This document shows, piece after piece, positions 29,495-51,149 of a stretch of DNA of 64,000 bases. A program made the translations under genes and the position numbers. Source of the stretch: a virus; IMG/VR virus record IMGVR_UViG_3300027909_000003; one strand, written 5' to 3'. The notes below the pieces were generated by a model that was not told where the DNA came from, did no database searches, and saw nothing but the letters and a program-made list of their open reading frames with translations. The number at the start of each line of letters is the position of its first letter. Position 1 is the first letter of the stretch.

Positions 29495-29784
29495 GGCCTC
29501 TCCTCCTTGGCCGCCTCGACCTTGGCGATATCGGCGTTGGTCATACTGGCGGCTTTGGCGAGCGTCGGCTCGCTGAGCTTGACAGCAGGGACCACATTGT
29601 CCCTGGTTGCGACTGTGCCGGCACCGGCGATAGCCAGTAGGATGATATCAAGGAAGGTCTTCCACTCCGCTGCGATGTCGACGCCATACTTGTGCAGCGT
29701 GACGCCGAGCGCGATGAGGAAAGCGTCGAGCAAGCGCGTCGCGAGAACCGGCTGTCGCTTGACCCAGTCTGTAAGCCACTTCAT
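29491..29784 (-). CDS. Holin-like small membrane protein
   Basis: 97 aa with two hydrophobic segments (LLDAFLIALGVTL; FLDIILLAIAGAGTVA) and a charged C-terminus. Lies next to the endolysin. Confidence 0.5.
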   Translation of the reverse strand: MKWLTDWVKRQPVLATRLLDAFLIALGVTLHKYGVDIAAEWKTFLDIILLAIAGAGTVATRDNVVPAVKLSEPTLAKAASMTNADIAKVEAAKEERP

Positions 29785-32845: not shown

Positions 32846-33697
32846 TTACCTCATCTCTGTGATACCAAGCTCAGTTACTGTGAATCCTGTCTGTCGATAT
32901 TCGGTAGGGATATGCTTGACGGAGACATCCTCTTTCACGCGACCAACATACAGAACATCCATTGGATAGATCAATTCAGATGTATCAACACACACCACTA
33001 TGTCGTGCGATGAGCCACGCTCCAAAAGCATGTCCTTGATATTTGCTCCATCAGCCTTTGTCAATGCACCAGGCTGCCATCCGAAAGACACTCTACGACG
33101 CGCACCGCACGGCCTGGTACTCTCTCCTCCATCCATATCCTCTGTCCCCACAACATTCTCGCCATGGATCATCTCCCACCCAGGCTCTGCCGAATGGACA
33201 GGAGTGATGGGCGTTCCTAGAATTAGACGCGATCCACGAACGAAACCATCACTGTTCGAATTCCACTGGAAGTCAACTCGCCACCAACGCGCACCAGATG
33301 TGCCGAATGTGTATAGGCGGTGGGGACGACGATACTTAACCATCGAAAGTTCACTACCAGCCGGGTAGAATGGAATCATGCCAGAGTCAAACGATGGATT
33401 AGCTGTGAGATCCACCTCTGAACTTGCTGATCTCAGTCTGAATTCATCGCTGTCCTCACCGTTAAAGTAGCCTAGAAAAAGTGCACGCCAATTGACTACT
33501 GCTCCCGCATCGACTGTGATAAATGGAGTCGTCGTCGTTGACTGCCAAACCAACTTTGTGCGCTGGTTCCGAAGATACGCGGCAGCAGTCCCTCCGACAG
33601 AATTGCTAGCCACCATCTCATGAATGGCGTCAGATTCCTTCGGACTAACGAGTGTTGTTAAACTACCCAAAGAGATCCACCTCCACACGGTCGGCAC
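32846..33697 (-). CDS. Distal tail/baseplate protein
   Basis: 283 aa; assigned by position. Start uncertain: 35-nt overlap with the upstream gene, alternative Met at 33616. Confidence 0.45.
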   Translation of the reverse strand: MPTVWRWISLGSLTTLVSPKESDAIHEMVASNSVGGTAAAYLRNQRTKLVWQSTTTTPFITVDAGAVVNWRALFLGYFNGEDSDEFRLRSASSEVDLTANPSFDSGMIPFYPAGSELSMVKYRRPHRLYTFGTSGARWWRVDFQWNSNSDGFVRGSRLILGTPITPVHSAEPGWEMIHGENVVGTEDMDGGESTRPCGARRRVSFGWQPGALTKADGANIKDMLLERGSSHDIVVCVDTSELIYPMDVLYVGRVKEDVSVKHIPTEYRQTGFTVTELGITEMR

Positions 33698-35910: not shown

Positions 35911-38900
35911 TTACCTGCTGTCCATCACAGTTCTTTTGGTTGTCATCATAGTGGTTTCCATCAACTGAAGACGCTCATTCAAAATTTGCTGATGAGTTGA
36001 AATGTTCCCTAGTTCGTCTACCATTGCGTGCATTGTTGTGAGCTGTTCTGTGCCAACCGCGACGGTTGCCGCGAACCCAGTGTTAGTCGCCTGAATCTGC
36101 TGCTGTGTGCCAGCGTTGAATAGGGTGCTTGTAAGCAAGTTGTCGTCATGCGCAGTTGTTATACCAAGCAAACCTTGCAAGTCGGTCTGAATGTTCGGGA
36201 ATTCTGCAGCGAGCAGCGCTGGTGAGAAGCTAGCCAACGCAGCAAGGTAGTCGCGGCCGACATCATCGATTGCTTCCATAGCAAATATGTCGCCAGTGCG
36301 GGCAAGATCTCGCGTCTGCTGGTACAGTGCTTGCTGTGCCTCGAATGCCTGCCTAGCAGAGACTACGCCATGGGCGCCAGTGGCCATTTCATTGAGCAGG
36401 TCACGGATGCCATCTTGGGCCTCGATCAATCTGCGCGCAAGATCGCTGAGCCCAGTTGCCACTTCACCGACAGCACTGCTAAAGTCTTCCATCTGCGGGA
36501 AGAACGTACTGCCCTCAAAGCTGGCGTCACGGATCCATCCAAGAAGATCAGACAGCGTGAACGAGAGACCTTCGAATGCGCCTGCCGCAGCCAGGGCCAA
36601 TGCGGCAGACATTGCCTGCGCCTGTGCCAGTGCGAACTGGGCGTGCGCCAATTCAAGCACCACCTTAGTCGGTAGTCGCACACCGAGAGACTCCAACGAG
36701 CCAAGGAACTCGGCACCGATTTGACGTGCCGCGATGCTTTGTGCCTTGTCAAGCTTTTCGATATCCTCAGCTAGGAAGTCAGTCGACCGCCCTGCAGCGC
36801 GAGCCTCGTCGGCGAGCTTGCGCAACGCCTCGCGGCTCTTCTCGAACGCGGCCAGCATGTCGATAAGTCCACGCTGCGAGCTGCCGATACCGGCAGCTGC
36901 GTCAAGCGCTGCACGGTGGGGGGCCATTGCAGCATCGCGGCCCTGCTCAATGAGTTGATCAGCTTGCTTCTCATATTCTGCAGTGAGAGATGCTATCATG
37001 CCAGCAGCAACATCAGCCGCAAATCCCCCGTCTGCAACCTCCTTGAGCAATATCTCCAGACTCTTGCTGAGCTGTGCCAGAGGATCCTGACCCACACCAA
37101 GGAATTGATTGACGCGATCACGAATCCCCTGCCTGATCTCTGCTTGCCGACGCGCCACCTCTGCCAAACCTTGCGCTATGAGCGCGGCAGACTGCGCTGC
37201 ACTGAACCCAGCATCCTTGACTCGTTTCTTGAATTCCTCCAACCAGAAGCCGGTGTCTGCGAGTTGGCGCGTAATGTCGCTGGCGCCAAACAATCCTGCC
37301 TCTTGCAGGATGTCAGCGCGCGATTGGCGTTGTGCATCGCCTCGCCCAGATCTAGGACCACGTCCTGCGTCTCTGCGCGCAGCCGCCAACGCATCGTCGA
37401 ACATCGTGGCGAACTCTTCCCACTTACCAAGAGCGACCAACTGCGCCTTGATGGCTGCGAATTCAATCTCCACCTTCATCAAGGCGTACTTGTGAGCTTC
37501 TGCTGCATATTTTCCGCTGCTCTGCAAGTATTTGTACAGAGCATCAAAGATGCCCATGTTAATCTCTTGATCAGAGAGTGCAACAGGGATCTTATCTAGC
37601 TCTGCAACGTAGCGGTCAACCTCGGCCTGCAATCGAGCGATAGCAGCATCAAACTCCTCCTGAGTCTGAATGTGCGATTCGCCAAGCGCGCGATTGACAG
37701 TGGTCCGTGGGCCTGCAGCAACAGCAGCTTCCAGATCGGCGCGAGCACGGTCTACTGCCTGGCTTGCAATGGCTCCAGCAGTATCACCCAGCTCAGCGAT
37801 GCCGCGCTGGAAGCTAGCTAGATTAGCGATGGCATCTGACGCCGCAGTATCAACACCCAGCAGGTTATTCTTGAGTGCTGCAGCCTCACGATCTCGCTTC
37901 GCAATTGTGGCATCAATCGAAAGACCCAATGCTTGCAGAGAAGCGACCTCAGCAACAGACGAACGGAAGATATCATACAATGCGCTACCAGATTCGCCGA
38001 GCCTCGCGTGAACAGCAGCCAATGCTGTGTCAATGTTCTTTTGGAATTCGTCCAGCTTCGTAGCTGTCGAATTCTTAATGGCGGTTACTATCTCAGAGCT
38101 GAGTCCGATGTTCGGTGCAGCCTTAATCGCTTGGATGGTAGCGAATTCGAACGCTGCCTCCATGTCCTTGCCGAAATTGACAACAGCACCATCGATCAAC
38201 CTGACTAGCCACTGTGTATGCTTACCCTGACCCTTCTTGGTGATGGACATATTGCCCATCTCCTGCTTGGTCAGGTCCAACTCACCTCCGAGCGCAGTCA
38301 GGAAGTCGCGGACGTTCTTCATCACCCCCTGAATCTGAGAAAGCACCACAGCCATCGAGTGCGACGCATTTGCCGAGCTGCCGCCCTGCGGATTGGTCAT
38401 CGAGCCGGGCATGCCTGAGGTATACATGCCCTGCGGACCGCCGAAGAAGATGTCCTGTGAGGCGCGCGGCGTGCCAGCTTTCGCCATTTTATTGAAGGCG
38501 ATGAGAGCGACAGCCAGGAACGCTGCTGCCCAGCCTGCACCAGCTGCAGCTCCGCTGCTACTGCCTCCCGCCGCTACAGCGCCGGAAGAACTTGTACCTG
38601 AGGCTCCTAGGCCTGAGTAACCAGCAGTGCCAAACCCAGTACTGCCGCCCACTGCCCCGCCGCCGGCAGAGCCGCCGCCGAACATCCGCATGATGCTGCT
38701 CATCCACCCGCCGCCACCTCCGCCGCCGCCGCCACTACCACTGTCCGCCGCCTTGCGAATTGCAGCTTGCTGAATGGTGATCGCGGTCTTTAGCAACTCG
38801 CCCTTCAGCCAATTCGTGACGATCTCCGCCACCATGTTCGCGATGATGTTGATGAGTCGATCGACAAGGGACTCCATGATTGCTTCGCCATCAATGGCCC

Positions 38901-40611
38901 CTTCCTTAAGGCCCTGTGCGATGGCATCGCCGAACGCGTCTCCAACTGCTCCCGCAGCTGCCATCCCAGCCTGCATATATGACTGGAAGACATTATCGAC
39001 CAACACCTCCTGCGCCATGATCATCTGGTTCAGGTGATCCTGCGCCGATCCTGCCTTGACAATCTCCTCTGTGATGTCGGCCTGTATGCGATTGTTCTTT
39101 GCGAGCCATGCATCCATGACCTCGGTGGACACACCGAGCTTGATCATTCTCTGCCTAGCCAACTCGATGTTGACTGCAAACTGCTCGCTGTCACTCAAGC
39201 TCTCAAACCAGAAGTCGAATTTGCTCTTAGCTAGCTCCTTGCTCACGCCGGTGAGAGATGCAATGTCTACTCCCTTACCAGCCTTTTCAATGAAATCCTT
39301 CAGACGGGCGAATTTGTCACCGGCCAGTTTCGCATTTAGAGCCAGCTGCACAAGCTGTGCAATTGTCTTTGCTGAAGCGTCAGGGAACTGCTTCATTACA
39401 GCTACAAGAGCTTCAGAGAATTCAACCGACTTGCCACTAGCTAATGACTCAAGCCCAGCATTTATCGCCACTACCTCAGCAGAAGCTTGCTTGAAAGCTG
39501 CAGCAAGCGCTTCACCTGCAGCCTTCTCTTCCTCGGAGAGTCGAACAAGACCATCACCAGTGATGTTGGCTGCCCTGCCAAGGGCTAGCTGCGCATCAAC
39601 TTGCGCAAGTATTTGCTTGACGATATCAGACCCAATAGTTCGTTCCATTGCATTGAAGGACGCGTCCAGTGCAGAACGTGTCTTTCGTTGCGCACCCTCC
39701 ATCTTATCAAACATGGCCACAAGCGCCAGCCCCGCAGGGCCGGCGAGAATGGCCATTGACTTGCCCGCGTTCAGAATCTGCAAATCAAGATCGATCCACG
39801 CGTCAACAAGACTATGAATCTTCTTTACAATATCCAGCACACCAACATCAACCGTCATCCAGAATTTGTGCCAGTTATCGTTGATCTTGTCAATAGCTTT
39901 GACCGCTAACTCAACTCCTGCACGAAATTGTCCTGTGGAATCTTTTCCAATAGTCTCGAGCAGTCTATCCCATGAATTCTTTAGCGCAGTTAAGGATCCT
40001 CCCATTGTGTTACGCATGGCAGCTGCAGCGCCAGCGTATTTAACAGCAAGTGCATCGAGCAATACTCCTTGCGCCTTGATGAGCTCCCCATGGGCCATCA
40101 AGTGCTTAACCTGCTCTTTTTGCTCGTCAGTTAAAGTGACGTTCGTTCTGCGCAGCAATGTGAGCCCACGAATTGGGTCGTCTATCGAACGACCTAGACT
40201 TTCCATCGCGCTAGCAACATCACTACCAGTAGCAGCAGCCATATCCATGGCCGCTTGTGTTACGCGCGGGAAGACCTCGTTTCCTATGTGGGTGAATCGC
40301 AGCGCTATTGTTTGTGCCTGAACAATCGCATTGTCTGTAAATGTAGAAACGCGAGACAATGCATCTGCTTGGCCTTCCAAAGCCTCAGCAACACCTTCAC
40401 TTGCATTCCGGGTAGAATGAAGAACTGCTACCAATCTGGCATGGTCATTAGCATCCTCGATCACCTCCTGAGAGATGTCGTTGAACAATTTGATCGTGGC
40501 ACCTGCAACAGCAGCAAACGACAGCATGCCGCTGATAGTCTTCGCCATGTTCGCCGTGAACTGATCATTCAGGCGAATTGTTCCTTCGATTATGCCAATG
40601 CTAGTGCTCAT
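35911..40611 (-). CDS. Tail tape measure protein (1566 aa)
   Basis: Size, position after the G/T chaperones, Ala-rich helical composition, internal hydrophobic and Gly-rich segment (SGSGGGGGGGGWMSSIMRMFGGGSAGGG). Confidence 0.85.
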   Translation of the reverse strand: MSTSIGIIEGTIRLNDQFTANMAKTISGMLSFAAVAGATIKLFNDISQEVIEDANDHARLVAVLHSTRNASEGVAEALEGQADALSRVSTFTDNAIVQAQTIALRFTHIGNEVFPRVTQAAMDMAAATGSDVASAMESLGRSIDDPIRGLTLLRRTNVTLTDEQKEQVKHLMAHGELIKAQGVLLDALAVKYAGAAAAMRNTMGGSLTALKNSWDRLLETIGKDSTGQFRAGVELAVKAIDKINDNWHKFWMTVDVGVLDIVKKIHSLVDAWIDLDLQILNAGKSMAILAGPAGLALVAMFDKMEGAQRKTRSALDASFNAMERTIGSDIVKQILAQVDAQLALGRAANITGDGLVRLSEEEKAAGEALAAAFKQASAEVVAINAGLESLASGKSVEFSEALVAVMKQFPDASAKTIAQLVQLALNAKLAGDKFARLKDFIEKAGKGVDIASLTGVSKELAKSKFDFWFESLSDSEQFAVNIELARQRMIKLGVSTEVMDAWLAKNNRIQADITEEIVKAGSAQDHLNQMIMAQEVLVDNVFQSYMQAGMAAAGAVGDAFGDAIAQGLKEGAIDGEAIMESLVDRLINIIANMVAEIVTNWLKGELLKTAITIQQAAIRKAADSGSGGGGGGGGGWMSSIMRMFGGGSAGGGAVGGSTGFGTAGYSGLGASGTSSSGAVAAGGSSSGAAAGAGWAAAFLAVALIAFNKMAKAGTPRASQDIFFGGPQGMYTSGMPGSMTNPQGGSSANASHSMAVVLSQIQGVMKNVRDFLTALGGELDLTKQEMGNMSITKKGQGKHTQWLVRLIDGAVVNFGKDMEAAFEFATIQAIKAAPNIGLSSEIVTAIKNSTATKLDEFQKNIDTALAAVHARLGESGSALYDIFRSSVAEVASLQALGLSIDATIAKRDREAAALKNNLLGVDTAASDAIANLASFQRGIAELGDTAGAIASQAVDRARADLEAAVAAGPRTTVNRALGESHIQTQEEFDAAIARLQAEVDRYVAELDKIPVALSDQEINMGIFDALYKYLQSSGKYAAEAHKYALMKVEIEFAAIKAQLVALGKWEEFATMFDDALAAARRDAGRGPRSGRGDAQRQSRADILQEAGLFGASDITRQLADTGFWLEEFKKRVKDAGFSAAQSAALIAQGLAEVARRQAEIRQGIRDRVNQFLGVGQDPLAQLSKSLEILLKEVADGGFAADVAAGMIASLTAEYEKQADQLIEQGRDAAMAPHRAALDAAAGIGSSQRGLIDMLAAFEKSREALRKLADEARAAGRSTDFLAEDIEKLDKAQSIAARQIGAEFLGSLESLGVRLPTKVVLELAHAQFALAQAQAMSAALALAAAGAFEGLSFTLSDLLGWIRDASFEGSTFFPQMEDFSSAVGEVATGLSDLARRLIEAQDGIRDLLNEMATGAHGVVSARQAFEAQQALYQQTRDLARTGDIFAMEAIDDVGRDYLAALASFSPALLAAEFPNIQTDLQGLLGITTAHDDNLLTSTLFNAGTQQQIQATNTGFAATVAVGTEQLTTMHAMVDELGNISTHQQILNERLQLMETTMMTTKRTVMDSR

Positions 40612-41394: not shown

Positions 41395-41877
41395 TTAGGA
41401 GAACAGCACGCCATCAATCTTGACGAACGGCTCGGTGAAAGACACCGTAACATCAACCTTGCGAACGCCAGCACCCTCAGGAGCACTGTCCTTCCATGAA
41501 GTGATCTCGCCGGTCTGGATCACCTCATCTACGCCAGCCGCTCCACTCGGCCCCCAGTAGCGCCAGCCACGACGACGAAGCGCCGTGGTATTCGCAAGGT
41601 ATGCCGCGCGCATCGCTACATGCACAGCAACCGAAGGGTCGTAGTTGATCGAGAAGGTCTGATCTTCTCGCTCAACAGGACCGGTGACTGCACTGTTGAT
41701 GTTCGCGCCGTGCGGCGTGAACTTGGTGGTGGCTCGCGTGCCAGAGAATCCAAGGATGTCGCCCTGGATACCTGGAACACTTGTGAATGTGCCACTCACA
41801 GGTGCTGCGATTACTCCTGCGACTACAGATCCTGACTCGAAAGCCAGTGTCGCATAGTGGCCAGATTCCACGCTCAT
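41395..41877 (-). CDS. Major tail (tube) protein
   Basis: 160 aa; canonical position upstream of the chaperones, with beta-rich composition. Confidence 0.6.
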   Translation of the reverse strand: MSVESGHYATLAFESGSVVAGVIAAPVSGTFTSVPGIQGDILGFSGTRATTKFTPHGANINSAVTGPVEREDQTFSINYDPSVAVHVAMRAAYLANTTALRRRGWRYWGPSGAAGVDEVIQTGEITSWKDSAPEGAGVRKVDVTVSFTEPFVKIDGVLFS

Positions 41878-41896: not shown

Positions 41897-42310
41897 TCAT
41901 GCGGCCACTGTTATATTGAAATTTCCATCAAGCGCAGCATATACGGCATTTGCTCGCGCTTCTGCGACAGCATAGTTTGTTGCTGTAATGACCAACTGTG
42001 CTGACAATCGTTTGAATTTAGTTGCACCAATTCCATGCGGCCTAATTGGTGCAGTACCACCAGTATTGATCACAGAAATGAATGGTCCTGCGCCAGCAGG
42101 GAGTGCGACACCAGGGCCGGAGAAGATGTCTGTTCCAAAAGTGCCTAGACCAGCAGTGTTAAGTATCTTCACGATACACAGCACCCAAGAGGCTACTGGC
42201 TCTTGAGCCACAGCACTAAAGTTGACAGAAAACTGATTACGATTTTGCCCATCAAGCCCAATTGGAAATGGTTCCTGGTTTGCAGTGATAGAGAGGAAGC
42301 GAGTGCTCAT
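41897..42310 (-). CDS. Tail terminator / head-tail joining protein (DUF3168-like)
   Basis: 137 aa; assigned by position between the gp10-like and tail tube genes. Confidence 0.45.
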   Translation of the reverse strand: MSTRFLSITANQEPFPIGLDGQNRNQFSVNFSAVAQEPVASWVLCIVKILNTAGLGTFGTDIFSGPGVALPAGAGPFISVINTGGTAPIRPHGIGATKFKRLSAQLVITATNYAVAEARANAVYAALDGNFNITVAA

Positions 42311-42759
42311 TCTTCCACCTCGACACTAGCTTTTTCCTTCGCAACGCGCGCAGCAACTCGCTCAGCCATACCAGGTATGGCTTCCATGAGTGGACGCTCT
42401 AGGTACTTCGGACCAGTACCAGGAGGATTGAATGTGATTGTCTTTCCTTCCCAGCTAGGAGGACTGGAACCAGAAGGGTGTTCATGAACTGCAGTCGCAT
42501 AAGCTGCTGCCGCACCACCGAAACCCAACACAACAGAGAAAGCAGTACCTCTACGCGCTGGCTTAGACACAAAGCCGCTGTTGCGCAATGTGCCACCCAT
42601 CTCCTCTGCGACCGGTGTTACTTTTTTTGCGGCTGTCATTACGAACTGTGCTTCCTTATATAACGCGCGCTCGATCTTGTCAGGGAACTCTTTTTGTATT
42701 GCCTTGATCTTCGCGCGCATCTCCTTGATGCCTTTGAAGACGATGCTAGCAGCCCCCAC
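42307..42759 (-). CDS. HK97 gp10-family head-tail joining protein
   Basis: KEFPDKIERALYKEAQFVMTAAKKVTPV..GTLRNSG resembles HK97 gp10-family N-termini. Confidence 0.55.
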   Translation of the reverse strand: MGAASIVFKGIKEMRAKIKAIQKEFPDKIERALYKEAQFVMTAAKKVTPVAEEMGGTLRNSGFVSKPARRGTAFSVVLGFGGAAAAYATAVHEHPSGSSPPSWEGKTITFNPPGTGPKYLERPLMEAIPGMAERVAARVAKEKASVEVEE

Positions 42760-43994
42760 TAGGCCATCACCTCATCAGTCACGGCTGCTCCAGCAATGAC
42801 AGCTTCCAACTGCAGGCGGAATGCTTCGCCAATTGCCGACCACTGTAACGATGGACGAGCAGTAAGTGCCAGTCCACGCTCGCTGAATTCTCGGCGCAGT
42901 TCCTTATAGGCGTACATGCGCCACAAAGCTCTGACCGTCTCGTCCCTATCTGGCACTCCACCAATGGTGTACGGAAACATATTCAATGGAGCTGAGAGCG
43001 CTGTTGCTGTGCAAGGCACCTTCATCACTGCATCTTCTGGCCACTCTCCTAGTGCGCTCCAATCTGGAACGATGCAAGGAATCCCACAGGCCATGGCTTC
43101 ATGCGTTGTCAGGCCCCAACCTTCGCCTTGTGTCGTGGTAAGGACGACGTCGAACGCTCTATACACTTCTGCCATCGTATGCTCGCTGAGCTCATTGCCA
43201 ATGCTCGGCACATTCATCATGATCCGATTCTTCAGAACAGAGCCATAGTATGCAGCCACCGCTCTGACATCGCACGCCTTTTCACCAGTCGCAGCGATGT
43301 GCAAAAAGAGATGAGCATCCGGGACATTGTGCCTTTCAATGAACTCAGCAAAGTAAGCTATGGCCAAATCGATCCTTTTACGAGGCTGATTTCGCCCAAC
43401 GACGCCGACGATGAATGCATTCATCGGCACTTCCGGCGGGCAAATTAGCAGACGAGCCTCATTGCGATCGCCAGGCTTGAACACAGAAGTATCCACACCT
43501 AGCGGAACGATTGAGGAAGTGCCGGTGTAGCCGCCCTTACGCAGCTCATCGATAGCAAATTGCGTCCATGTAACGATGTGTGCAAGTTGATTCAATTCAT
43601 CACTCATCGGATGATTTTTTGCATCAACTGCAAGCCACCCCACGACCGGAATTCCTTCAACTCCTTTTTCCTTGAGAGAGTCAAAGTACTCGTCAACGTT
43701 CCATGGATCCTGAAGCAGCACAATCACGTCAGGCTGGAGATCAGAGGCGAGCACCGCCAAGCGCTGTGCCCCAAACAAGTCACCCTTGCCGCGTCGTTGT
43801 GCCACATAGATCGGATATGGATATCGTTGCTGTAGTTGCCATCCACTTGCATCTGCTTGCGAGTCTCCAGACTCGTTAATACCAAGTACAGCAACCTGAT
43901 GCCCTGCAGCATGCAATGCACCGCATGCCGCACGCGTACAGCGAGCAAACCCTGTGCTCACAGTCGGCGCGTCACCAACCCAGAGGACCTTCAA
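42759..43994 (-). CDS. GT-B glycosyltransferase (GT4/GT1-like)
   Basis: N-terminus (M)KVLWVGDAPTVSTGF and EX7E motif region TTQGEGWGLTTHEAMACGIPCIV. TTG start coupled (TTGA) to the upstream small ORF. Confidence 0.8.
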   Translation of the reverse strand: MKVLWVGDAPTVSTGFARCTRAACGALHAAGHQVAVLGINESGDSQADASGWQLQQRYPYPIYVAQRRGKGDLFGAQRLAVLASDLQPDVIVLLQDPWNVDEYFDSLKEKGVEGIPVVGWLAVDAKNHPMSDELNQLAHIVTWTQFAIDELRKGGYTGTSSIVPLGVDTSVFKPGDRNEARLLICPPEVPMNAFIVGVVGRNQPRKRIDLAIAYFAEFIERHNVPDAHLFLHIAATGEKACDVRAVAAYYGSVLKNRIMMNVPSIGNELSEHTMAEVYRAFDVVLTTTQGEGWGLTTHEAMACGIPCIVPDWSALGEWPEDAVMKVPCTATALSAPLNMFPYTIGGVPDRDETVRALWRMYAYKELRREFSERGLALTARPSLQWSAIGEAFRLQLEAVIAGAAVTDEVMA

Positions 43995-44197
43995 TGTCTT
44001 ACCTCGCCAACTTCGCCGACAGATACGCCGAATGCACTACGCTTTACATTGTGAATCTGTCCATTGCTTATCTTGACGCGAATCCTGTTTGGAGTCTTAT
44101 TGTCGAGCAGCACGACAGTCTCACCAGCCCTGAGCAATATGTCGCAGCACAACACACGCAGATCGCTTCTGAGGGTATAAGTCTTACCGATTTTCAC
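43991..44197 (-). CDS. Hypothetical small protein within the glyco-cassette
   Basis: ORF 43991..44311 trimmed to GTG at 44197 (GTGA overlap with the methyltransferase stop): VKIGKTYTLRSDLRVLCCDILLRAGETVVLLDNK... Confidence 0.4.
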   Translation of the reverse strand: MKIGKTYTLRSDLRVLCCDILLRAGETVVLLDNKTPNRIRVKISNGQIHNVKRSAFGVSVGEVGEVRH

Positions 44198-45441
44198 GCC
44201 GCCACTTCCTTCTCGCCAATCTGCACGACGCCTGGGAGAGGGAACAGCAAGTTGCCACCAGCTCTGAGGAACTCGCGCTCGCGCGCGATGATAGAGTCGC
44301 GGAAGTGCCACGGCATTACTAGAAACTGGTCTGGCCTCATAGCGTGCGCTTCTCGTTCTGAGATAATTGGGATCATCGACCCAGGAGTGAAGCAGCCAAA
44401 CTTCTCCTCATTCACCTCCGCGAAATACGGAAGCTCACGGCTAGTCAGGCCACAGTACTGCAGGATTACATTACCCTTGGTTGATGCTCCGTATCCGAAA
44501 GTCCTGGTCCCACGAGCTGAAGAGCGAGACAAAGCAGAACACAAAGAGTCGCGATGCGAAGCAACAGAGGAGGCGAACCGACTGTAAGTGCTAGCTGTGA
44601 TCGATTCTTCTTCGCGAAGCAATTCGTACACAGCCGGTTCCGTTCGATAATTTGACGCAGCGTGAGCCATCACGACTGCAAAACTACCACCATTCGCATT
44701 CGTTCTCGTTACATCAATCACGCGCAGGCCTACACAACGCGCAATATATGCAATTTGCCGCAATCCGTAATATTCCACGTGCTCGTGGCATACAGTATCG
44801 TAGGAGTTCTGATACATCATCGCTGGCATGTAGCTCTGTTCGGAGACCCAAATTCCATCGTCAGCAAGTACATCTGCAACATCACGAGCAAACCCCACAG
44901 GGTCAACCAAATCGTAGAACATCGCGATGGATGTAACTAGCTTCGCCTTCTTACTCCCGAAGCAACGTTGCCAGAGTGCTTCTGTGAAAAAGTCAGGAAT
45001 TTTCTCAATGTGATCAGGATAGTAGTGACCGAATTTACGAATGGTTGGATCCACTCCAACCAGAGTCACTCCTGGCGCAAAAAAAGACAACAAGGTCCCA
45101 TCATTACTGCCAATGTCCAGAACAATGTCGGGCTCTTGCAGTGTATCAACATGGGACATTGCGAATGAACAAACATGACGTAAGTGCTCGATCATCGCCT
45201 TGTTCAATCCAGAACGATATCCGTATCCATCACCATAAAGCAAGTGTGCCGGATAAACATGCCGCAATTGAACAAGCCCGCAATCGCCAACACATCGCAC
45301 AAGCCGTAACGGGCCTTCAGGAACAGCTTCATCAAGACTCGCAGGGAACAATCCTGTCAATGACTGCACACCCAAATCGAGCACTGGAATTAGGTCATTA
45401 CAACCACATACCAGACACCCAGCTGTGAGCGTGCCGATCAC
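44194..45441 (-). CDS. Sugar C-methyltransferase-type enzyme (zinc-ribbon N-domain, class I SAM MTase, C-methyltransferase C-domain)
   Basis: CLVCGCNDLIPVLDLGVQSLTGLF...PLRLVRCVGDCGLVQL matches the Methyltransf_13 zinc-binding N-domain. VLDIGSNDGTLL is the SAM loop. Start trimmed to GTG at 45441 (GTGA overlap with the GT2 stop). Confidence 0.75.
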   Translation of the reverse strand: MIGTLTAGCLVCGCNDLIPVLDLGVQSLTGLFPASLDEAVPEGPLRLVRCVGDCGLVQLRHVYPAHLLYGDGYGYRSGLNKAMIEHLRHVCSFAMSHVDTLQEPDIVLDIGSNDGTLLSFFAPGVTLVGVDPTIRKFGHYYPDHIEKIPDFFTEALWQRCFGSKKAKLVTSIAMFYDLVDPVGFARDVADVLADDGIWVSEQSYMPAMMYQNSYDTVCHEHVEYYGLRQIAYIARCVGLRVIDVTRTNANGGSFAVVMAHAASNYRTEPAVYELLREEESITASTYSRFASSVASHRDSLCSALSRSSARGTRTFGYGASTKGNVILQYCGLTSRELPYFAEVNEEKFGCFTPGSMIPIISEREAHAMRPDQFLVMPWHFRDSIIAREREFLRAGGNLLFPLPGVVQIGEKEVAA

Positions 45442-46238
45442 AGCGCCACCATAGCTTCTTGATTTACCCTGTCGTACTGTGGACCATAAGGTGAATGCCT
45501 CGTCTCTGGAGCAATCCGAAGAGAAAGACCTGGATTGTTCCATGGCAAAGTAAGCGTCTCTTCGCCATTAGGACCGCCCCACTTTCGACAGTAGTAATTC
45601 CTATTGCGCACAAAGGTGTCGTGGTTGCGACGATTCACCTCTGGGTCACGATAGATAGTGCCACTCCCGACGTGAGAGACAGAGGTTCCCTCGCACACTG
45701 TCTGGCCCAAGCCTGACAGAGTCGCGCGTCGACCATAGTCGCAGTCTTCAAAATATGCAGGGAACAGATTTTCATCGAAGCAACCAAGAACCTCAAGTGC
45801 AAGTGGCTGTAGTGCGAAGCATGAATAGCCATGAGAAGAAACGGCCCTCTTGGCGCGCTCATGGTATCCACCGCACACAACTATGAAACCATCACGATGG
45901 TTCACTGCGTGCTCTGCCATGCGCCTCAGGTCACCAGCTCCAAACACAATGTCGTCATTAGCGATGATCACGACATCTGCACCATCTTCATAGCAGGCAA
46001 GCACACCTTCGTTCCAAGCACGTGCGAGACCTGCATTGTGCCGAATATCGCGCAATTGACACGCCGAGCCGTACCGCGCCGCAACATCATGGCAAGCCTG
46101 CACAGTTTCCTCATCGTTGGAGTGTAGGAACAATTCAAAACGCAAGGCATCGCTGAGAGTGAAACCATCAGCGCTATCAACCAAACGAACCAAGTCACGT
46201 CCAGAATTGTACGCTGCGATTACCAATCCGATGTTCAT
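45438..46238 (-). CDS. GT-A glycosyltransferase (family 2-like)
   Basis: GLVIAAYNSGRDLVRLVDS and the DxD region VVIIANDDIVF. Confidence 0.75.
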   Translation of the reverse strand: MNIGLVIAAYNSGRDLVRLVDSADGFTLSDALRFELFLHSNDEETVQACHDVAARYGSACQLRDIRHNAGLARAWNEGVLACYEDGADVVIIANDDIVFGAGDLRRMAEHAVNHRDGFIVVCGGYHERAKRAVSSHGYSCFALQPLALEVLGCFDENLFPAYFEDCDYGRRATLSGLGQTVCEGTSVSHVGSGTIYRDPEVNRRNHDTFVRNRNYYCRKWGGPNGEETLTLPWNNPGLSLRIAPETRHSPYGPQYDRVNQEAMVAL

Positions 46239-47641
46239 GCCTGTACCTTTTTCAATACTAGTGATGCAAACGTATAACCGTGCACGTGTGCTCCGCGATC
46301 AGTATAGTCTGGCGTCCCGAGCAATTCAAACCCAGGCGCATCGTTGATCAAGCGGCTCAAACGCGCGACATTATACGTTCGCAGATGCCCAGATACTTGT
46401 GGAACTCCGTCTGGCCAAAAGTCCACAGTAAGGATAAGCAGACCGCCTGGCCGCACGAAGCTCTGCAAGCGACGAAAGAAATCGCGATCTTCCTCGATGT
46501 GTTCCAATACTGATAGACATGTTACTGCATCGTAAGTCCTCCGATCATCATAACTCATGATGTCTTGCTGATGATAAACCAAAGGACGCCCAAGCGTCCA
46601 GGCTTGATGAGCGACCCATTCCAAACAATCGCCAGGGTCAACCTGGACCACAGTAATTCCAAGCGACGCGGCAGCGGGAGCGAAGACAGAGCCGCCACCA
46701 CCCACATCTAACACCGAGAAGCACTCACGCGATCGCAGCACATTGAGCGCCAGTCCATACTCCCATGCGCGTAGAGGGTGCTCAAAGCGGTGGGCGACGC
46801 TGGCGAGTTGCTCGTTGATGTTAAGGACGATTGCAGACTCCTCGAAGTTGTCTGCAGGATCATATGTCTTCGAGTAAATGATAGGCTGCCTGGCATTGAT
46901 GCCAAGAGAGTACAGAATATCGATCGCCGACGGGTTAACAAGATAGTGGTTATACGGTGACTGCACCCAATGTCGCTCGTCCCAAGAGCGCCCGTCGTGT
47001 GGCACCACCTTCGGCATTGAGAAGCCATTAGCAAGCACGAGCATTGCCGAAGACAACCCAAAAAACCCGCCGGAATCGGCAAGCCACGGCAAGATCTCTA
47101 ACATGTCAAGGCCCGTCAGATCGAGGCTGCGCCCTCTGCCAATATACTCACCAAATGCGCCAATTTCGACGACTGGTATAGGACTCAGGCCAATTACCTC
47201 ACGGAACAAATCCGCATAGCTCGTCTCGCCACGAGCTGCCAACACTGTGTACGATCCGCTGCCAAGCGTCGCACGCTGATAGAAGTCGTAGCGAACATCG
47301 CAGCCTCGCCAGTCAATTCCAGACTGAGAGGCAATGAACTCATTGAGTGGCCGATCAGGAATCGTCCTAAACCCCAGGTGATGCACAGCGTCATAGCCAT
47401 CTGGCACTGGCATTTGCCATGGCTGAACGCCGCAATCAGCGCGCTCAGGAATGTAGTCGCCAGCTACTATAGCGTGTCGTATATAAGGTTGTGCTTGTAC
47501 AAGATCGAGAATGGGCCGGCAATACTCGCTCGTGTAGAAGTCAGCCTTACAACCATGAATTTGGCACAGCGCACGCACTGTAGGCAATGCGTAGAGCGCG
47601 TCGCCAATCTTACCAGGATGGGTGCAAGCAATCACTCGCAA
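46235..47641 (-). CDS. Fusion protein: GT9 (heptosyltransferase-like) glycosyltransferase plus class I SAM methyltransferase
   Basis: N-terminus MRVIACTHPGKIGDALYALPTVRAL is GT9-like. C-terminal VLDVGGGGSVFAPAAASLG...LSVLEHIEEDRDFFRRLQSFVRPGGLLILTVD is a SAM MTase. Confidence 0.7.
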   Translation of the reverse strand: MRVIACTHPGKIGDALYALPTVRALCQIHGCKADFYTSEYCRPILDLVQAQPYIRHAIVAGDYIPERADCGVQPWQMPVPDGYDAVHHLGFRTIPDRPLNEFIASQSGIDWRGCDVRYDFYQRATLGSGSYTVLAARGETSYADLFREVIGLSPIPVVEIGAFGEYIGRGRSLDLTGLDMLEILPWLADSGGFFGLSSAMLVLANGFSMPKVVPHDGRSWDERHWVQSPYNHYLVNPSAIDILYSLGINARQPIIYSKTYDPADNFEESAIVLNINEQLASVAHRFEHPLRAWEYGLALNVLRSRECFSVLDVGGGGSVFAPAAASLGITVVQVDPGDCLEWVAHQAWTLGRPLVYHQQDIMSYDDRRTYDAVTCLSVLEHIEEDRDFFRRLQSFVRPGGLLILTVDFWPDGVPQVSGHLRTYNVARLSRLINDAPGFELLGTPDYTDRGAHVHGYTFASLVLKKVQA

Positions 47642-48006
47642 CCTCGATCATAGGTCTTGGTGATGACTGTGATTCCATCCTCACCAAAAAGTTGGTCGAT
47701 GTGTTGCACCAATCTTGTCCTGTGAGCATTCAATCGCTGCGCTTGACGTGCTGCGGCAGCAGTTGTCTTATCGTCTTGATCAGACATGACGATTTCCTGC
47801 GCCAACCAAGTAGCACGAAGAACAATGGCGAGATCGAAAATGAGGACACCGGCACCATCGCCCAAGTGACGATCGAGTGCATCAACGAGCATCCACATGC
47901 GCGCGGCAAGCTGTGCGTCACCATCTGGTTTCTCTGAAATGCGAAACGCCAGCGTCGCAGCCTCATCCACTAACTGTCCTGTGCTCTTTACCTCGATGCT
48001 GCTCAT
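47632..48006 (-). CDS. Hypothetical protein (between the connector genes and the glyco-cassette)
   Basis: 124-aa ORF in register. Confidence 0.5.
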   Translation of the reverse strand: MSSIEVKSTGQLVDEAATLAFRISEKPDGDAQLAARMWMLVDALDRHLGDGAGVLIFDLAIVLRATWLAQEIVMSDQDDKTTAAAARQAQRLNAHRTRLVQHIDQLFGEDGITVITKTYDRGCE

Positions 48007-48386
48007 CCGAGAAACACCTCTGTGGCAACAGGGATGCCAGTCACTGCATCAATGAATCCTGCCATATCAAGAATTGGCCCAGTAGTCCCGTCAGGAAGCG
48101 TGATCTTGTCGTCGTCACCGATGCCTGCGCCACCAGTGGCTGCCACAAGCGCATCGATGTCGAGGAATGTCACTGCAGCGCGGCTGACAGTAAGCAACCC
48201 TGTGGTCGTGCGCACTTGTGTTTGCTTCCAATCCACGATTGCTTTTAGATCAACTGCTGCTGCGTATGTTTTGTCGCCAAATCCATCTTGCCCAGTGAAT
48301 CTTTCGTAAGAGACTGAAGGTTGCAGATCCTTTGTTACCTTATCGGCAACCTTTACGCCCGAGCGAATGACACCTAGCAAACCCAT
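48003..48386 (-). CDS. Head-tail adaptor / head closure protein
   Basis: 127 aa; assigned by position after the gp6-like connector. Confidence 0.45.
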   Translation of the reverse strand: MGLLGVIRSGVKVADKVTKDLQPSVSYERFTGQDGFGDKTYAAAVDLKAIVDWKQTQVRTTTGLLTVSRAAVTFLDIDALVAATGGAGIGDDDKITLPDGTTGPILDMAGFIDAVTGIPVATEVFLG

Positions 48387-48389
48387 TGG

Positions 48390-48995
48390 CTACATAGCAC
48401 TCAAAGACGCACGGAGCGCCGGAGTGATGACCTCATCAGTAAGCCAACTGGGCACCAGCAATTCCATAACAGCATCAGGCAACACCTGCCGCTCGATCAT
48501 TTCCTTGAATGTCACAGCCACCGAACCTGCACGCACAGAAGTGATTCCCTGAAGCGACACATCATTATCAAGCGTGCGATCAACGATGAGCAATTGCCCA
48601 GCCAACTCAAATTGAGCTTCCTTTAAGGATTGCGGAATTGATGTAGAGCCAGTGCTTGGAATAGCCCTTCCAAGTCGATCAAACATTCCCTCGCGCCCCC
48701 ACGCCAGCGCCTGTGTCGCTGTGGCCACTGTGCCTGTCCACGCGCGTGAAGTAATGTAATACGGGTATCCCTTTGGTCCACCTGCCTTATCGCGGTGCAG
48801 TCTCTTGCGTGCCACCGCGAAAGAATCCAGCACGCGTGTGGCCATGATCAATGCTGCCTTTTTCGGCTCACCAGTACCTGTTGGCCATGGCGTTGCTAGT
48901 GGCACACGAGCCTCAAAATAGAGGTCTGCCTCTGCCAATGTCCCGTAGGAATTTGCAGCCGCGTGCCCAGGCGTCGCTTCAATGGTCAATGCCAC
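48390..48995 (-). CDS. gp6-like head-tail connector protein
   Basis: N-terminus ...AAANSYGTLAEADLYFEAR is typical of the phage gp6-like head-tail connector family. Confidence 0.6.
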   Translation of the reverse strand: MALTIEATPGHAAANSYGTLAEADLYFEARVPLATPWPTGTGEPKKAALIMATRVLDSFAVARKRLHRDKAGGPKGYPYYITSRAWTGTVATATQALAWGREGMFDRLGRAIPSTGSTSIPQSLKEAQFELAGQLLIVDRTLDNDVSLQGITSVRAGSVAVTFKEMIERQVLPDAVMELLVPSWLTDEVITPALRASLSAM

Positions 48996-49657: not shown

Positions 49658-50686
49658 TTACGAAATGACGTAGATGCCGCTGCGATCAGCCGCCGTGGCC
49701 CGGACCACTGGCACCTGAATGGCGAACACCTTCATCGCCACTGCCATACCGCCGTAGATGTCCCACTGAATGGTCTGAATGCCCTCGCCGTCGGCGATGG
49801 CGACCACGTCACGGGTGGCCTGGAACACTGTGATCGTGTTGGCCGGCTGCTGATCAGCAATGATGATCTTCTGCAGACCCTTGATCTTCATGATGCGATC
49901 GTTGATCGTGACGCCAGGATACAGCGTGCTGTAATCGACGTCGACTACATCACCATAGGCGCCAGGGAGCAGAACCCAATACGGACCATAGAACCGCTTG
50001 GTCCGCAGCACGGCGACCGCCGTGCGAATGTCGTTGAACATGTCGAGGCCGGTCTTGGCGACCTGTGCCCAGTTGCCGTTGGTGCCGAAACCACCGGTGT
50101 TGCGCTTGGGGTGGTTGTTGAGGCCATAGACTGTCTGACCACCATAGGTCGGACCACCGATGATTGTCATCTCCTCAATCTTCTCACCAACCAGCCCGCC
50201 CGACAGGCCGACCTGCAGCGTGTCGAGCGGCTCGCCACTATCACGGCTCGCCTCCAGAGAACGCAGGCCGATATTGAAGTCCTTGTGTGTGATGGGAAGC
50301 GGCACACCGAGGTGGTCGAACTCGGTGCGATCATTGTCGCTGCGAGCCAATCCGTCAAGCGACACGATGGCAGGAGTCATGTTGGTGATCCTGTCCCACT
50401 GGAACACAGTCTTGCCCATCGCGTTGGGGATGGGGATTCGCAGGCCTGCAGCCAACAGGTCGGTGACGAGCGGAGAGCGGACCAACCCCTCGCGCACCGC
50501 TACCTTATCGAACTCAATCCATGCATTGAACGGAAGTGTGTCGAGGGTGCGCAGCTCCTTGGGGCTGAGCTTACGCCCTTCCTTCAGGGCCTTGAGCAGC
50601 TGCTCGCCGGCCCACCGACCGCCGGTATCGCCGCTGCTCATGAATGCGTTGGCGCCATCGACGCGCGCCGGAGTAGCTTCGGACAT
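49658..50686 (-). CDS. Major capsid protein (HK97 fold, encapsulin-like family)
   Basis: 342 aa after the scaffold and decoration genes. The N-terminal region (…LDTLPFNAWIEFDKVAVREGLVRSPLVTDLLAAGL…) resembles encapsulin/Linocin-type capsid proteins. Confidence 0.75.
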   Translation of the reverse strand: MSEATPARVDGANAFMSSGDTGGRWAGEQLLKALKEGRKLSPKELRTLDTLPFNAWIEFDKVAVREGLVRSPLVTDLLAAGLRIPIPNAMGKTVFQWDRITNMTPAIVSLDGLARSDNDRTEFDHLGVPLPITHKDFNIGLRSLEASRDSGEPLDTLQVGLSGGLVGEKIEEMTIIGGPTYGGQTVYGLNNHPKRNTGGFGTNGNWAQVAKTGLDMFNDIRTAVAVLRTKRFYGPYWVLLPGAYGDVVDVDYSTLYPGVTINDRIMKIKGLQKIIIADQQPANTITVFQATRDVVAIADGEGIQTIQWDIYGGMAVAMKVFAIQVPVVRATAADRSGIYVIS

Positions 50687-50714
50687 CTCAGGTTCTCCTT
50701 GCGCTCTGGCGCGG

Positions 50715-51149
50715 TTAGAGGATAATCACAACGAGGCGGTCGCCGCCAGCAGCACTCGACGGAGACTTGTCGTATGCAGCACGTGCGATGGGCTTGGTGG
50801 TACCAGCCTTCAGGCGCCCGGCACCGTCCGACTCCAGCTCAGCACCATCAACGAAGGTGCTGCCCGAGTCGACGATGGCATTGACGCGTTCCCCAGTCTT
50901 GAAGAAGCCGGCCTTGATGTAATCGAGCGCAGCGTATGCCACGTCGATGCCCTGGCCAAGCTCATCGCGCTCCAGCGCGAACCAGGGACCAGCAGCGCCA
51001 GACGCCGTGGCATGCTTGCGCCACTTGCCGGCGTTGACCTCGATGAGATGGCCAGGCGTGATCGCAGCGCTGGCCTGCTTCTGCTCGTCGACATTCGGCT
51101 CGCCGCGCACTGCGATGACGCGGCTGCCGGTCTTTTCGCTTCCAGCCAT
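50715..51149 (-). CDS. Head decoration / DUF2190-like protein
   Basis: 144 aa between the scaffold and the capsid gene; Gly/Ala-rich beta-type sequence. Confidence 0.45.
   Translation of the reverse strand: MAGSEKTGSRVIAVRGEPNVDEQKQASAAITPGHLIEVNAGKWRKHATASGAAGPWFALERDELGQGIDVAYAALDYIKAGFFKTGERVNAIVDSGSTFVDGAELESDGAGRLKAGTTKPIARAAYDKSPSSAAGGDRLVVIIL

Follow-up and report, generated by a model that had tools for sequence, protein, structure and literature searches.

What do enzymes that transfer and methylate sugars do in the middle of an operon that builds a phage head and tail? The question is raised by the IMG/VR virus record IMGVR_UViG_3300027909_000003, of which a stretch of 64,000 nucleotides (the window) was analyzed; the window makes up almost all of a 65,026-bp metagenome contig of the Joint Genome Institute (JGI; 3300006847, Ga0075431_100000045). 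On its minus strand lies a cassette of five genes: a GT9-like glycosyltransferase (GT) fused to a methyltransferase (MT), a GT2-type glycosyltransferase, a sugar C-methyltransferase, a small open reading frame (ORF) named orf68, and a GT4-type glycosyltransferase. With orf124, directly upstream of the fusion gene, they form a six-gene module (42759-48006) in the late head-to-tail operon. The answer that we consider most likely, to which we give about an even chance, is that a virion protein is glycosylated by the module in the cytoplasm while particles are being assembled. The window itself is probably a near-complete genome of a ~65-kb siphophage, because the fusion protein is recorded in three contigs of ~65 kb and related IMG/VR contigs measure 60-70 kb.

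The first line of evidence is the position of the genes. Upstream of the cassette are genes for a scaffold/protease, a decoration protein, the major capsid protein, the Ad1 adaptor and a connector; downstream are genes for a Neck1/tail-completion protein, a tail terminator (PF12691, a weak match), the tube, chaperones and a 1566-amino-acid (aa) tape measure protein. The capsid gene spans 49658-50686, the decoration gene 50715-51149 and the tube gene 41395-41877. A preliminary description of this DNA, made by a model from the letters alone, had placed five consecutive minus-strand genes at 42759-47641, running from the connector/capsid side to the neck side. The ORF list, the sequence and the JGI gene calls are concordant on the gene boundaries and uphold this arrangement. 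The same description joined the five genes by 4-nt start/stop overlaps, listed as GTGA, GTGA and TTGA. All four internal junctions do overlap, but the list omitted one of them: the fusion and GT2 genes share ATGA, GT2 and C-methyltransferase genes GTGA, C-methyltransferase gene and orf68 GTGA, and orf68 and the GT4 gene TTGA. At the upstream edge, orf124 overlaps the fusion gene by GTGA and the connector gene overlaps orf124 by ATGA; at the downstream edge, the TAG stop codon of the GT4 gene and the GTG start codon of the neck gene share 1 nt (TAGTG). As read from the sequence, a Shine-Dalgarno-like motif lies ahead of each cassette start. Overlaps of 4 nt occur throughout the operon (for example 48003/48006, 42307/42310 and 40608/40611), so coupling is not peculiar to the cassette.

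There are no intergenic gaps within the cassette, and it has no excess of promoter-like sites (11, versus 7.7±3.1 in shuffled sequences) or terminator-like sites (12, versus 10.9±3.6). Its GC content and its GC content at third codon positions (GC3), 0.52 and 0.51, match those of the neighboring minor structural genes; it is thus not a compositional foreigner. Together with the linkage of the GT4 gene to the capsid gene in related phages, described below, these data support the earlier proposal that the cassette is co-expressed within the late operon and is not a moron with its own promoter. The accompanying proposal, that expression is stoichiometric with the virion proteins, read too much into the arrangement: GC3 reaches 0.76 for the capsid gene and 0.73 for the decoration gene (49658-51149, minus strand), as against 0.36-0.60 for the remaining operon genes, including the cassette. 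The high values of these two genes are consistent with codon optimization of the most highly expressed proteins.

Further evidence came from related phages. A capsid-protein profile identified 80 related IMG/VR loci, and counts of the GT4 gene use those that share at least 41% capsid-protein identity with the window. Genes were counted by tblastn (E ≤ 1e-4) with queries derived from the window and a few others, a procedure that misses divergent genes, and some loci end early at the 10-kb flank. Among the loci whose sequence continues for 6 kb or more past the capsid gene, 29 of 35 have a GT4 homologue (36-45% identity) downstream of that gene. Dereplication (95% capsid nucleotide identity) leaves 34 clusters, 28 of them with GT4; this denominator also includes clusters that showed GT4 although their sequence past the capsid gene is shorter than 6 kb. 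The neck gene was detected at 11 loci, and at all 11 it starts -3 to +90 nt past the GT4 match. This linkage argues against a casual moron. The mean identity of relatives to the window is 41% for GT4 and 45% for the capsid protein, and within the GT4 family the mean pairwise identity is 0.497 for the acceptor-side N-terminal half and 0.501 for the donor-side C-terminal half. These values would fit joint inheritance of the GT4 gene and the structural module, with a GT4 enzyme that uses a conserved acceptor, beside an island that is exchanged.

The preliminary description had suggested comparing synteny in related phages, and in that comparison it was the enzymes between connector and GT4 that varied. 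Connector homologues mark the upstream edge of this island, and the connector-to-GT4 distance ranges from 239 bp to 8.4 kb. The window's own fusion, C-methyltransferase and GT2 genes were found in none of the 80 related loci. A Pfam scan of 119 non-redundant ORFs from the connector-GT4 gaps returned DegT aminotransferases (6), GT2 (5), GT11 (4), Methyltransf_24 (4) and hexapeptide acyltransferases (3), along with class-I methyltransferase families of 3-5 members each, GNAT (2), NTP transferases (2), rhamnosyl O-methyltransferases (2) and radical SAM proteins (2). To judge from this gene content, the enzyme set of the window is one allele of a variable island. Some islands also encode cell-wall hydrolase domains (CHAP, Peptidase_M15_4) and a Laminin_G_3 domain (15171-15620 in locus L004, ~15620 in L080, and one further ORF), which indicates that the hotspot is not exclusively glycan-related.

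The GT4 gene is missing from six loci (L003, L020, L024, L031, L064 and L065), of which L024 may be a truncation artifact. In L003, a close relative that lacks both GT4 and the island, a tube-like gene (13938-14378) lies between connector and neck; its product is 28% identical to the window's tail-tube protein, and the gene order is unlike that of the window. The nearest cultured phage by capsid is Brevundimonas phage MaInes (32% identity), where the stretch from capsid to tape measure contains no annotated glycosyltransferase, its genes being annotated as hypothetical only. Brevundimonas phages, at 32% identity, are the only cultured capsid relatives, and the cassette is absent from them.

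These comparisons bear on the possibility that the module has no role in the virion and is cargo in a tolerated insertion hotspot, its enzymes acting on a small molecule, a host protein or the nucleotide-sugar pool. Cargo is commonly inserted between structural genes, island content turns over freely, six of the 35 relatives do without GT4, the module is mobile among unrelated phages, and the PHROGs category of the GT2 and GT4 families is "moron, auxiliary metabolic gene and host takeover". We nevertheless regard this explanation as very unlikely, given that GT4 and the capsid protein show about the same divergence from their counterparts in the window, and that GT4 adjoins the neck gene at every locus where that gene was seen. 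Moreover, essentially every annotated island family is glycan-building or glycan-tailoring, and homologous GT4 genes recur in the structural modules of unrelated cultured phages.

Table. Coordinates of the module, of the genes that bound it, and of related modules in other genomes.
Feature	Genome or contig	Coordinates	Strand	Description
Ad1 adaptor gene	Window	48390-48995	-	Precedes connector; phrog_477, E 4e-25
Head-tail connector gene	Window	48003-48386	-	127 aa; upstream boundary; phrog_3881, E 2e-5
orf124	Window	47632-48006	-	124 aa, five-helix, distantly DUF4254-like; sixth module member, beyond the coordinates of the preliminary description
GT9-like/methyltransferase fusion	Window	46235-47635	-	466 aa from GTG start; 468 aa from TTG start at 47641
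Fusion, N-terminal domain	Window	46886-47635	-	Residues ~1-250; predicted minimal GT-B, GT9-like fold
Fusion, C-terminal domain	Window	46235-46783	-	Residues ~285-466 and stop codon; class-I S-adenosylmethionine (SAM) methyltransferase
GT2-type (GT-A) glycosyltransferase	Window	45438-46238	-	266 aa
NDP-hexose 3-C-methyltransferase	Window	44194-45441	-	415 aa; TylCIII/TcaB9/KijD1/MtmC type, N-terminal zinc ribbon
orf68	Window	43991-44197	-	68-aa ORFan; exactly spans the gap between C-methyltransferase and GT4 genes
GT4-type (GT-B) glycosyltransferase	Window	42759-43994	-	411 aa; directly upstream of neck gene
Neck1/tail-completion (HK97 gp10-like) gene	Window	42307-42759	-	150 aa; downstream boundary; phrog_5, E 1.3e-11
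Related module	L011, 97.5-kb Logan contig			orf124, fusion, GT2, C-methyltransferase and GT4 ahead of neck gene, in the window's order
Related module	L006, unrelated phage			C-methyltransferase, GNAT, DegT, fusion and GT2 directly upstream of large terminase (TerL)
Related module	L007			Two GT2s, FkbM methyltransferase, orf124 homologue and stand-alone GT9-like gene; near DNA ligase
Related module	L013, L097, L098			Recurring GT2, C-methyltransferase, orf124-like gene, fusion and SDR epimerase/reductase
Related module	L008, unrelated 73.6-kb viral contig	10001-15329		Three tandem GT9-like paralogues, then C-methyltransferase
Lone fusion	L012, Bdellovibrionota metagenome-assembled genome, JAXLVP010000002.1	10001-11401		47-48% identity; 1.87-Mb contig

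If the module is to modify a virion protein, its products should be the enzymes that their names suggest. For the GT2, the C-methyltransferase with its zinc-ribbon N-terminal domain and the GT4, domain searches and alignments agree with the identities first assigned to them, and the catalytic motifs (DxD-type, HEH and EX7E, respectively) are in place. The GT2 matches PF00535 above the cut-off (E 6.9e-9) and phrog_29879, "galactosyl transferase" (E 2e-24), and its acidic residues D96 (ANDD) and D165/D167 (FEDxD) are invariant across homologues from loci L011, L006 and L014 and from phages S-CBS4 and phiPsal1. The GT4 matches PF13692 (E 3.6e-11), PF00534, PF13439 and phrog_2170 (E 9e-34); both glutamates of its EX7E motif (GEGWGLTTHE) are at least 90% conserved in 28 homologues, and its best match among PDB sequences is the chlorovirus glycosyltransferase B736L (3oy2, E 3e-9, residues 1-373). 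Assignment of the GT4 to the "GT4-conflict" family (PF20706, E 2.6e-10) was considered and rejected, as that match covers only the generic donor-binding half and is no better than those of generic GT1 families.

The C-methyltransferase contains the domains PF08421 (E 1.8e-14), PF13489 (E 2e-10) and PF08484 (E 1.1e-44), and has full-length PDB matches to MtmC (4rv9, E 4e-60), a KijD1-type enzyme (5t64, E 5e-41) and TcaB9 (E 2e-38). Its CxxC...CxxxC motif aligns, with a one-residue gap, to CxxC...CxxC of MtmC, so that all four zinc-ribbon cysteines are present. Its HEH motif aligns to YHEH of MtmC, with a cysteine opposite the MtmC tyrosine, which we take to correspond to Tyr222 of TcaB9. Homology thus predicts, unambiguously, a nucleoside diphosphate (NDP)-hexose 3-C-methyltransferase. 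MtmC methylates C-3 of TDP-4-keto-2,6-dideoxyglucose and is also able to reduce the 4-keto group (PMC10269268).

Between the C-methyltransferase and GT4 genes, orf68 has overlaps at both ends (GTGA and TTGA), an AAGGAAG Shine-Dalgarno-like motif upstream and a JGI gene call. A search of 5.8 billion clusters returned only orf68 itself, Pfam gave only weak SH3-like hints (E 0.04-0.2), and in L011, where orf68 is missing, the C-methyltransferase and GT4 genes overlap directly. We therefore treat orf68 as a putative gene only.

The fusion protein is a less straightforward case. Its N-terminal domain has no Pfam match at E ≤ 10 and no match to a PDB sequence by phmmer or profile search, and hhalign against Escherichia coli WaaC and WaaF gave a probability of 2.7-5.8%. 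Lacking a PF01075 match, the domain falls outside the CAZy GT9 family as defined by sequence. An AlphaFold (AF2) model built from a 29-sequence alignment (predicted local distance difference test score, pLDDT, 90.9; predicted template modeling score, pTM, 0.87) gave a different result. In a Foldseek search of the PDB, ranks 1 to 30 are all GT9 structures (E 4e-11 to 1e-6), led by the protein O-heptosyltransferase TibC (4rap, E 4e-11) and including WaaC (2gt1/2h1h, E 5e-9 to 1e-8, TMq 0.57-0.68), a Veillonella GT9 protein (3tov) and WaaF (1psw). The best matches in BFVD are phage proteins named RfaF, Aah/TibC or GT9. An invariant G11-D12 in the motif HPGKxGDALYxLP stands opposite the N-terminal GD motif of WaaF in a local, non-significant alignment; the N-terminal catalytic aspartate of WaaC is Asp13. 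The GT9 label given in the preliminary description is thus correct as a statement about the predicted fold, and fails as a statement about sequence.

A profile of the N-terminal domain finds 574 representatives, mostly stand-alone proteins of ~250 aa, among 1.84 billion proteins. Because only these 574 clusters were retrieved, the family does not merge with canonical GT9. The methyltransferase half of the fusion was confirmed: residues 307-405 match Methyltransf_23/11/25/12 (E 3e-10 to 5e-7), motif I (VLDVGGGGS) is intact with D310, G312 and G313 invariant in 16 homologues, and the nearest PDB sequences are UbiG O-methyltransferases (E 1.3e-8). The fusion family comprises more than 85 full-length clusters at 90% identity in metagenomes, one homologue being labeled "ADP-heptose:LPS heptosyltransferase" by JGI. 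A scan of cellular-genome contigs with the fusion profile, which used one peptide pattern, returned 3 loci and has little bearing on how rare the fusion is in cells.

From these enzymes we infer substrates, an order of action and a virion-protein acceptor as follows. The host would supply the nucleotide sugars, including an NDP-4-keto-6-deoxyhexose; such donors must come from the host because the window contains no nucleotide-sugar synthesis genes (tblastn with six such enzymes) and no SDR reductase. The C-methyltransferase would turn the NDP-4-keto-6-deoxyhexose into a branched 3-C-methyl sugar donor, and the three transferases, two of GT-B and one of GT-A type, would assemble a short oligosaccharide. 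The fused methyltransferase may O-methylate, and thereby cap, the sugar added by its own transferase domain. Among the transferases, GT4 is the leading candidate to use a conserved acceptor, and the island enzymes would set a strain-specific outer glycan structure. A virion protein, modified in the cytoplasm, is proposed as the acceptor on the basis of the position of the genes, the lineage-wide linkage to morphogenesis genes, the analogy with mycobacteriophage Corndog and the recurrence of homologous GT4 genes. The fold of the GT9-like domain, whose best match is a protein O-heptosyltransferase, was also counted in support.

Several observations weigh against a virion acceptor. Phages that have the cassette and phages that lack it were compared for their capsid, decoration and tube proteins, and no Ser/Thr-rich tail, insertion or other feature tracks its presence. 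The fold scores of TibC and WaaC are nearly equal, so the fold favors neither a protein nor a lipid-linked acceptor. WaaC-type enzymes are soluble and yet act on lipid A-core, which makes the lack of transmembrane segments compatible with an envelope target. The window encodes no ketoreductase for the C-methylated sugar, and other versions of the module carry an SDR epimerase/reductase. None of the window's four enzymes has a mycobacteriophage homologue among 50,697 GenBank phage records (tblastn, E ≤ 1e-3). Finally, in other genomes (L006, L007, L013, L097, L098 and, as a lone fusion gene, a Bdellovibrionota bacterium) the fusion and C-methyltransferase genes are not tied to structural genes.

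The last point reflects the distribution of the module. The cassette proteins of L011 are 47-65% identical to those of the window, whereas its capsid, decoration and tube proteins are only 32-38% identical. The modules of L013, L097 and L098 lie among unannotated genes, that of L098 near an N6/N4 DNA methylase gene. In L008, a protein with a PfkB-type sugar-kinase C-terminal region is encoded ~0.7 kb past the C-methyltransferase gene, and the arrangement may be a module variant that activates heptose or another sugar. Such comparisons indicate that the GT9-like/methyltransferase and C-methyltransferase set is a horizontally mobile module among unrelated phages.

The sixth gene of the module, orf124, travels with the GT9-like gene. 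Immediately upstream of their GT9-like gene, L007, L011 and L013 have homologues (44-48% identity), and L097 and L098 have genes of 122 and 155 aa; no homologue was found in related phages that lack a GT9-like gene. This synteny, conserved at five other phage loci, makes orf124 the sixth member of the module and the upstream partner of its GT9-like gene. Its AF2 model (pLDDT 80.7) is all-helical, a five-helix bundle, and a PDB fold search returned generic helical bundles only (best E 0.2). Sub-threshold matches to DUF4254 were obtained for seven of nine homologues; our literature search on DUF4254 found nothing useful. Our guess is that orf124 is a partner or specificity factor of the GT9-like enzyme.

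The serious alternative to virion glycosylation, though an unlikely one, is remodeling of the host envelope. The acceptors would be lipid-linked intermediates (lipopolysaccharide (LPS) core, O-antigen or another polysaccharide precursor), which the soluble transferases would reach from the cytoplasmic side of the inner membrane, and the late change in the cell surface would block superinfection or stop progeny from adsorbing to debris. This possibility draws on the LPS-core heptosyltransferases WaaC and WaaF among the nearest structures of the GT9-like domain, and on the heptosyltransferase label of one homologue. It is also consistent with the lone fusion gene in a bacterial chromosome (between yjbQ and glyoxalase/pgk), which has lptD and nucleotide-sugar genes ~6-10 kb downstream. 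The content of the islands (DegT, GT11, acyltransferases, rhamnosyl O-methyltransferase) resembles that of O-antigen loci, and the closest cultured capsid relatives infect Gram-negative Brevundimonas. A known phage system of this kind, the GtrABC seroconversion module, likewise encodes glycosyltransferases, including GT2. GtrABC systems consist of membrane proteins, adjoin an integrase gene and attachment site, and are expressed in lysogens. The cassette differs in each respect: its place is a late structural operon and not the neighborhood of an attachment site; a scan of 20 non-structural ORFs (186-951 aa) turned up no integrase domain; and no clear transmembrane-like segment was detected in the module proteins, with a maximum KD19 of 1.02-1.57 in five of the six and a borderline 1.69, over a predicted bundle helix, in orf124. 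No GtrA-, GtrC-, Wzx- or Wzy-like membrane protein, and no flippase, polymerase or polyprenyl-phosphate transferase, was found. Late modification would in addition require newly made glycolipid to be exported before lysis, and the association of GT4 with the structural module is hard to explain by an envelope target.

A narrower form of the virion-glycosylation proposal, in which a tail, neck or receptor-binding protein is glycosylated and adsorption or host range is tuned, seems rather unlikely to us. The island does occupy the junction between head and tail genes and is immediately followed by the neck, terminator and tube genes, its diversity would fit diversification of host range, and the tail tube is among the glycosylated proteins of mycobacteriophages (PMC11600133). 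However, 7-12 kb separate the island from the distal tail genes (33663-35909 and nearby), conservation of the GT4 acceptor domain points to a target that is conserved and not hypervariable, and tail and head targets are inseparable on present evidence. As a separate observation, the 748-aa distal tail protein encoded at 33663-35909 (minus strand) has a concanavalin-A-like lectin domain (Laminin_G_3) and is a candidate for a receptor protein that binds carbohydrate.

The acceptor might also be the phage DNA, with the transferases decorating hydroxymethylated bases as a defense against restriction, an explanation that we consider extremely unlikely. Phage GT-A and GT-B enzymes do glycosylate 5-hydroxymethylcytosine, one pathway adding heptose, but the known pathways cluster with genes for C5-methyltransferase/5mYOX or ThyA-type hydroxymethylases (bioRxiv 10.1101/2023.12.21.572611). 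The window encodes the thymidylate synthase ThyX (800-1600), and the L007 and L098 modules lie near DNA ligase or DNA methylase genes; ThyX is, however, more than 41 kb from the cassette, whose neighbors are the connector and neck genes. The 20 ORFs scanned contain no C5-methyltransferase or TET/JBP-like domain, the fold matches are to GT9 and not to the T4 beta-glucosyltransferase, and a C-methyltransferase for NDP-keto-sugars together with an O-methyltransferase fusion is typical of glycan tailoring.

Is glycosylation of the virion by the phage's own enzymes known? Phage cassettes of glycosyltransferase and methyltransferase genes in or beside structural genes have been described, and virion glycosylation is proven for a few mycobacteriophages. 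The precedent to which the preliminary description referred, glycosyltransferase genes next to structural genes in mycobacteriophages, is found in Corndog, where gp35-gp38, an O-methyltransferase and three glycosyltransferases, lie between portal and protease genes (PMC4351075); the enzymes are present in infected cells and are not virion components. The cassette is reported to modify capsid and tail-tube subunits (Freeman et al. 2023, as cited in PMC11600133 and PMC12363180). Corndog and the window phage both have a methyltransferase gene and several glycosyltransferase genes, co-oriented, inside a siphophage structural operon. The two cassettes share no detectable homology, however, and occupy different sites (portal/protease in Corndog, connector/neck here), and no GT9-like domain, C-methyltransferase or glycosyltransferase-methyltransferase fusion has been described in Corndog. 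Che8 (for example gp110) and Myrna also carry virion-glycosylation genes. The host of the window phage is probably not an actinobacterium.

Homologues occur in cultured phages of other hosts. Synechococcus phage S-CBS4 (gp014-016) and Pontimonas phage phiPsal1 (gp010-012) each encode a homologous GT4 (27-29% identity, phrog_2170), a homologous GT2 (29-32%, phrog_29879) and a SAM methyltransferase. In S-CBS4 the trio lies between portal and head protease genes, with HNH endonuclease, repressor and hypothetical genes intervening; in phiPsal1 it lies between capsid and neck genes, with the methyltransferase gene on the opposite strand. Microcystis phage Mae-JY09 has a homologous GT4 gene between capsid and adaptor genes. 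Unlike the window, the S-CBS4 and phiPsal1 cassettes have no GT9-like domain, 3-C-methyltransferase or orf124, and their methyltransferase is a separate gene. A literature search found no functional study of the cassettes of these three phages.

There are also parallels with eukaryotic viruses. A064R of chlorovirus PBCV-1 is a fusion of two glycosyltransferases and a methyltransferase that builds the capsid glycan and methylates the sugar just added (PMC7826918). As in the window, a virus-encoded cytoplasmic transferase is joined to a methyltransferase; chloroviruses, however, are eukaryotic giant viruses with N-linked glycans, and the transferase domains of A064R are not described as GT9-like. 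The similarity of the window's GT4 to B736L of chlorovirus NY-2A, also a GT-B enzyme, is remote, and we know of no established function for B736L.

The individual enzymes likewise depart from their bacterial counterparts. The GT9-like domain shares with WaaC, WaaF and TibC the GT-B architecture and an N-terminal Gly-Asp, but has ~250 aa where those enzymes have 320-400. The match to TibC covers only a TMt of 0.43-0.45 of its 371-390 resolved residues. TibC and AAH, which glycosylate protein serines, have an iron-binding cysteine cluster and an oligomerization hairpin beyond the GT-B core, for which the 250-aa domain has no room. The C-methyltransferase has the three-part architecture of MtmC, TcaB9, KijD1 and TylCIII. 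Known 3-C-methyltransferases serve the deoxysugar pathways of actinomycete antibiotics, whereas this gene is part of a phage operon for morphogenesis, where no dehydratase, aminotransferase or reductase gene accompanies it.

The preliminary description held that a GT9-methyltransferase fusion with a C-methyltransferase in such a cassette had not been described. This stands in part. No homologue of the GT9-like domain was found in the GenBank phage records searched as above, 12 kb of the region had no megablast match among GenBank phages, and we found no paper describing such a cassette, nor anything on this arrangement in the literature on phage heptosyltransferases or on glycosyltransferases in cyanophage structural modules. 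On the other hand, GT4-GT2-methyltransferase trios exist in S-CBS4 and phiPsal1, UniProt entries of uncultured phages contain GT9-like proteins, including a methyltransferase fusion, and the fusion clusters in metagenomes are numerous. What is new is the joining of a methyltransferase to the predicted minimal GT9-like GT-B domain, along with the helical protein that accompanies it; the occurrence of a TylCIII/MtmC-type C-methyltransferase among the genes of such a cassette; and the lineage pattern of a conserved GT4 anchor beside a hypervariable sugar-tailoring island.

Other features of the window lie outside the module. The product of a plus-strand ORF of 333 aa (23695-24696) carries a hydrophobic anchor or signal at its N-terminus (PWPLIAIAAFFALLSICMLVAIARAQA), contains many cysteines and a long linker rich in Pro and Thr (PTNPTPTPTTSPTPPP...PQPTPTATPVTTPPTV), and has no Pfam match; it may be a secreted or envelope-directed cargo protein, and linkers of this composition are classic O-glycosylation sites in some bacteria. 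The ORF lies inside a GC-rich segment (24000-30000; GC 0.60-0.665, AT skew +0.19, versus a GC content of 0.49-0.55 in the rest of the genome). Replication and nucleotide genes, all on the minus strand (800-1600, 4987-6558, 10280-11953, 57908-58663, 59705-62560 and 62727-63287), encode ThyX, a UvrD-like helicase, an SNF2-family ATPase, a DNA polymerase III alpha subunit and two DnaQ-like exonucleases. The minus-strand gene at 28234-28890 encodes a peptidase M15/VanY-type endolysin. The tape measure protein (35911-40611, minus strand) has a run of about ten glycines mid-protein within a long Gly/Ser/Ala-rich stretch, and the 512-aa scaffold/protease-like protein has a KKDDE tandem repeat (51538-51579; 15-bp period, 2.8 copies). 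No tRNA genes were found in the window.

The proposal of virion glycosylation can be extended, more tentatively, from the window to its relatives. It is possible, although we would not call it probable, that a widespread environmental lineage of 60-70-kb siphophages carries a dedicated virion-glycosylation locus, in which a priming GT4 gene, passed on vertically, adjoins the neck gene on one side and, on the other, a sugar-tailoring island that is hypervariable and shuffled horizontally. Such a locus would be a phage counterpart of bacterial O-antigen loci. The enzyme sets seen in the islands include the GT9-like/O-methyltransferase with a C-methyltransferase, an aminotransferase with an acyltransferase, and a fucosyltransferase-family (GT11) enzyme. 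If this is so, strain-variable, self-encoded glycan coats would be common well beyond actinobacteriophages, and under diversifying selection.

To our knowledge, the phages in which experiments have demonstrated self-encoded glycosylation of the virion are limited to a few mycobacteriophages; outside phages it has been demonstrated for chloroviruses. If the module does glycosylate the virion, an abundant lineage of uncultured phages would have the trait as well, by means of unrelated enzymes, and a branched 3-C-methyl sugar and O-methyl capping would be added to the known chemistry. The minimal 250-aa GT9-like domain would be a compact new GT-B scaffold, and such cassettes would be candidate parts for glycan-shielded therapeutic phages. 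The combination of a conserved GT4 with a variable island would also give a handle on why phages of soil and water, where there are no antibodies, diversify a surface glycan; possible answers are particle stability, protease resistance, sticking to a matrix and evasion of host sensors that recognize the capsid.

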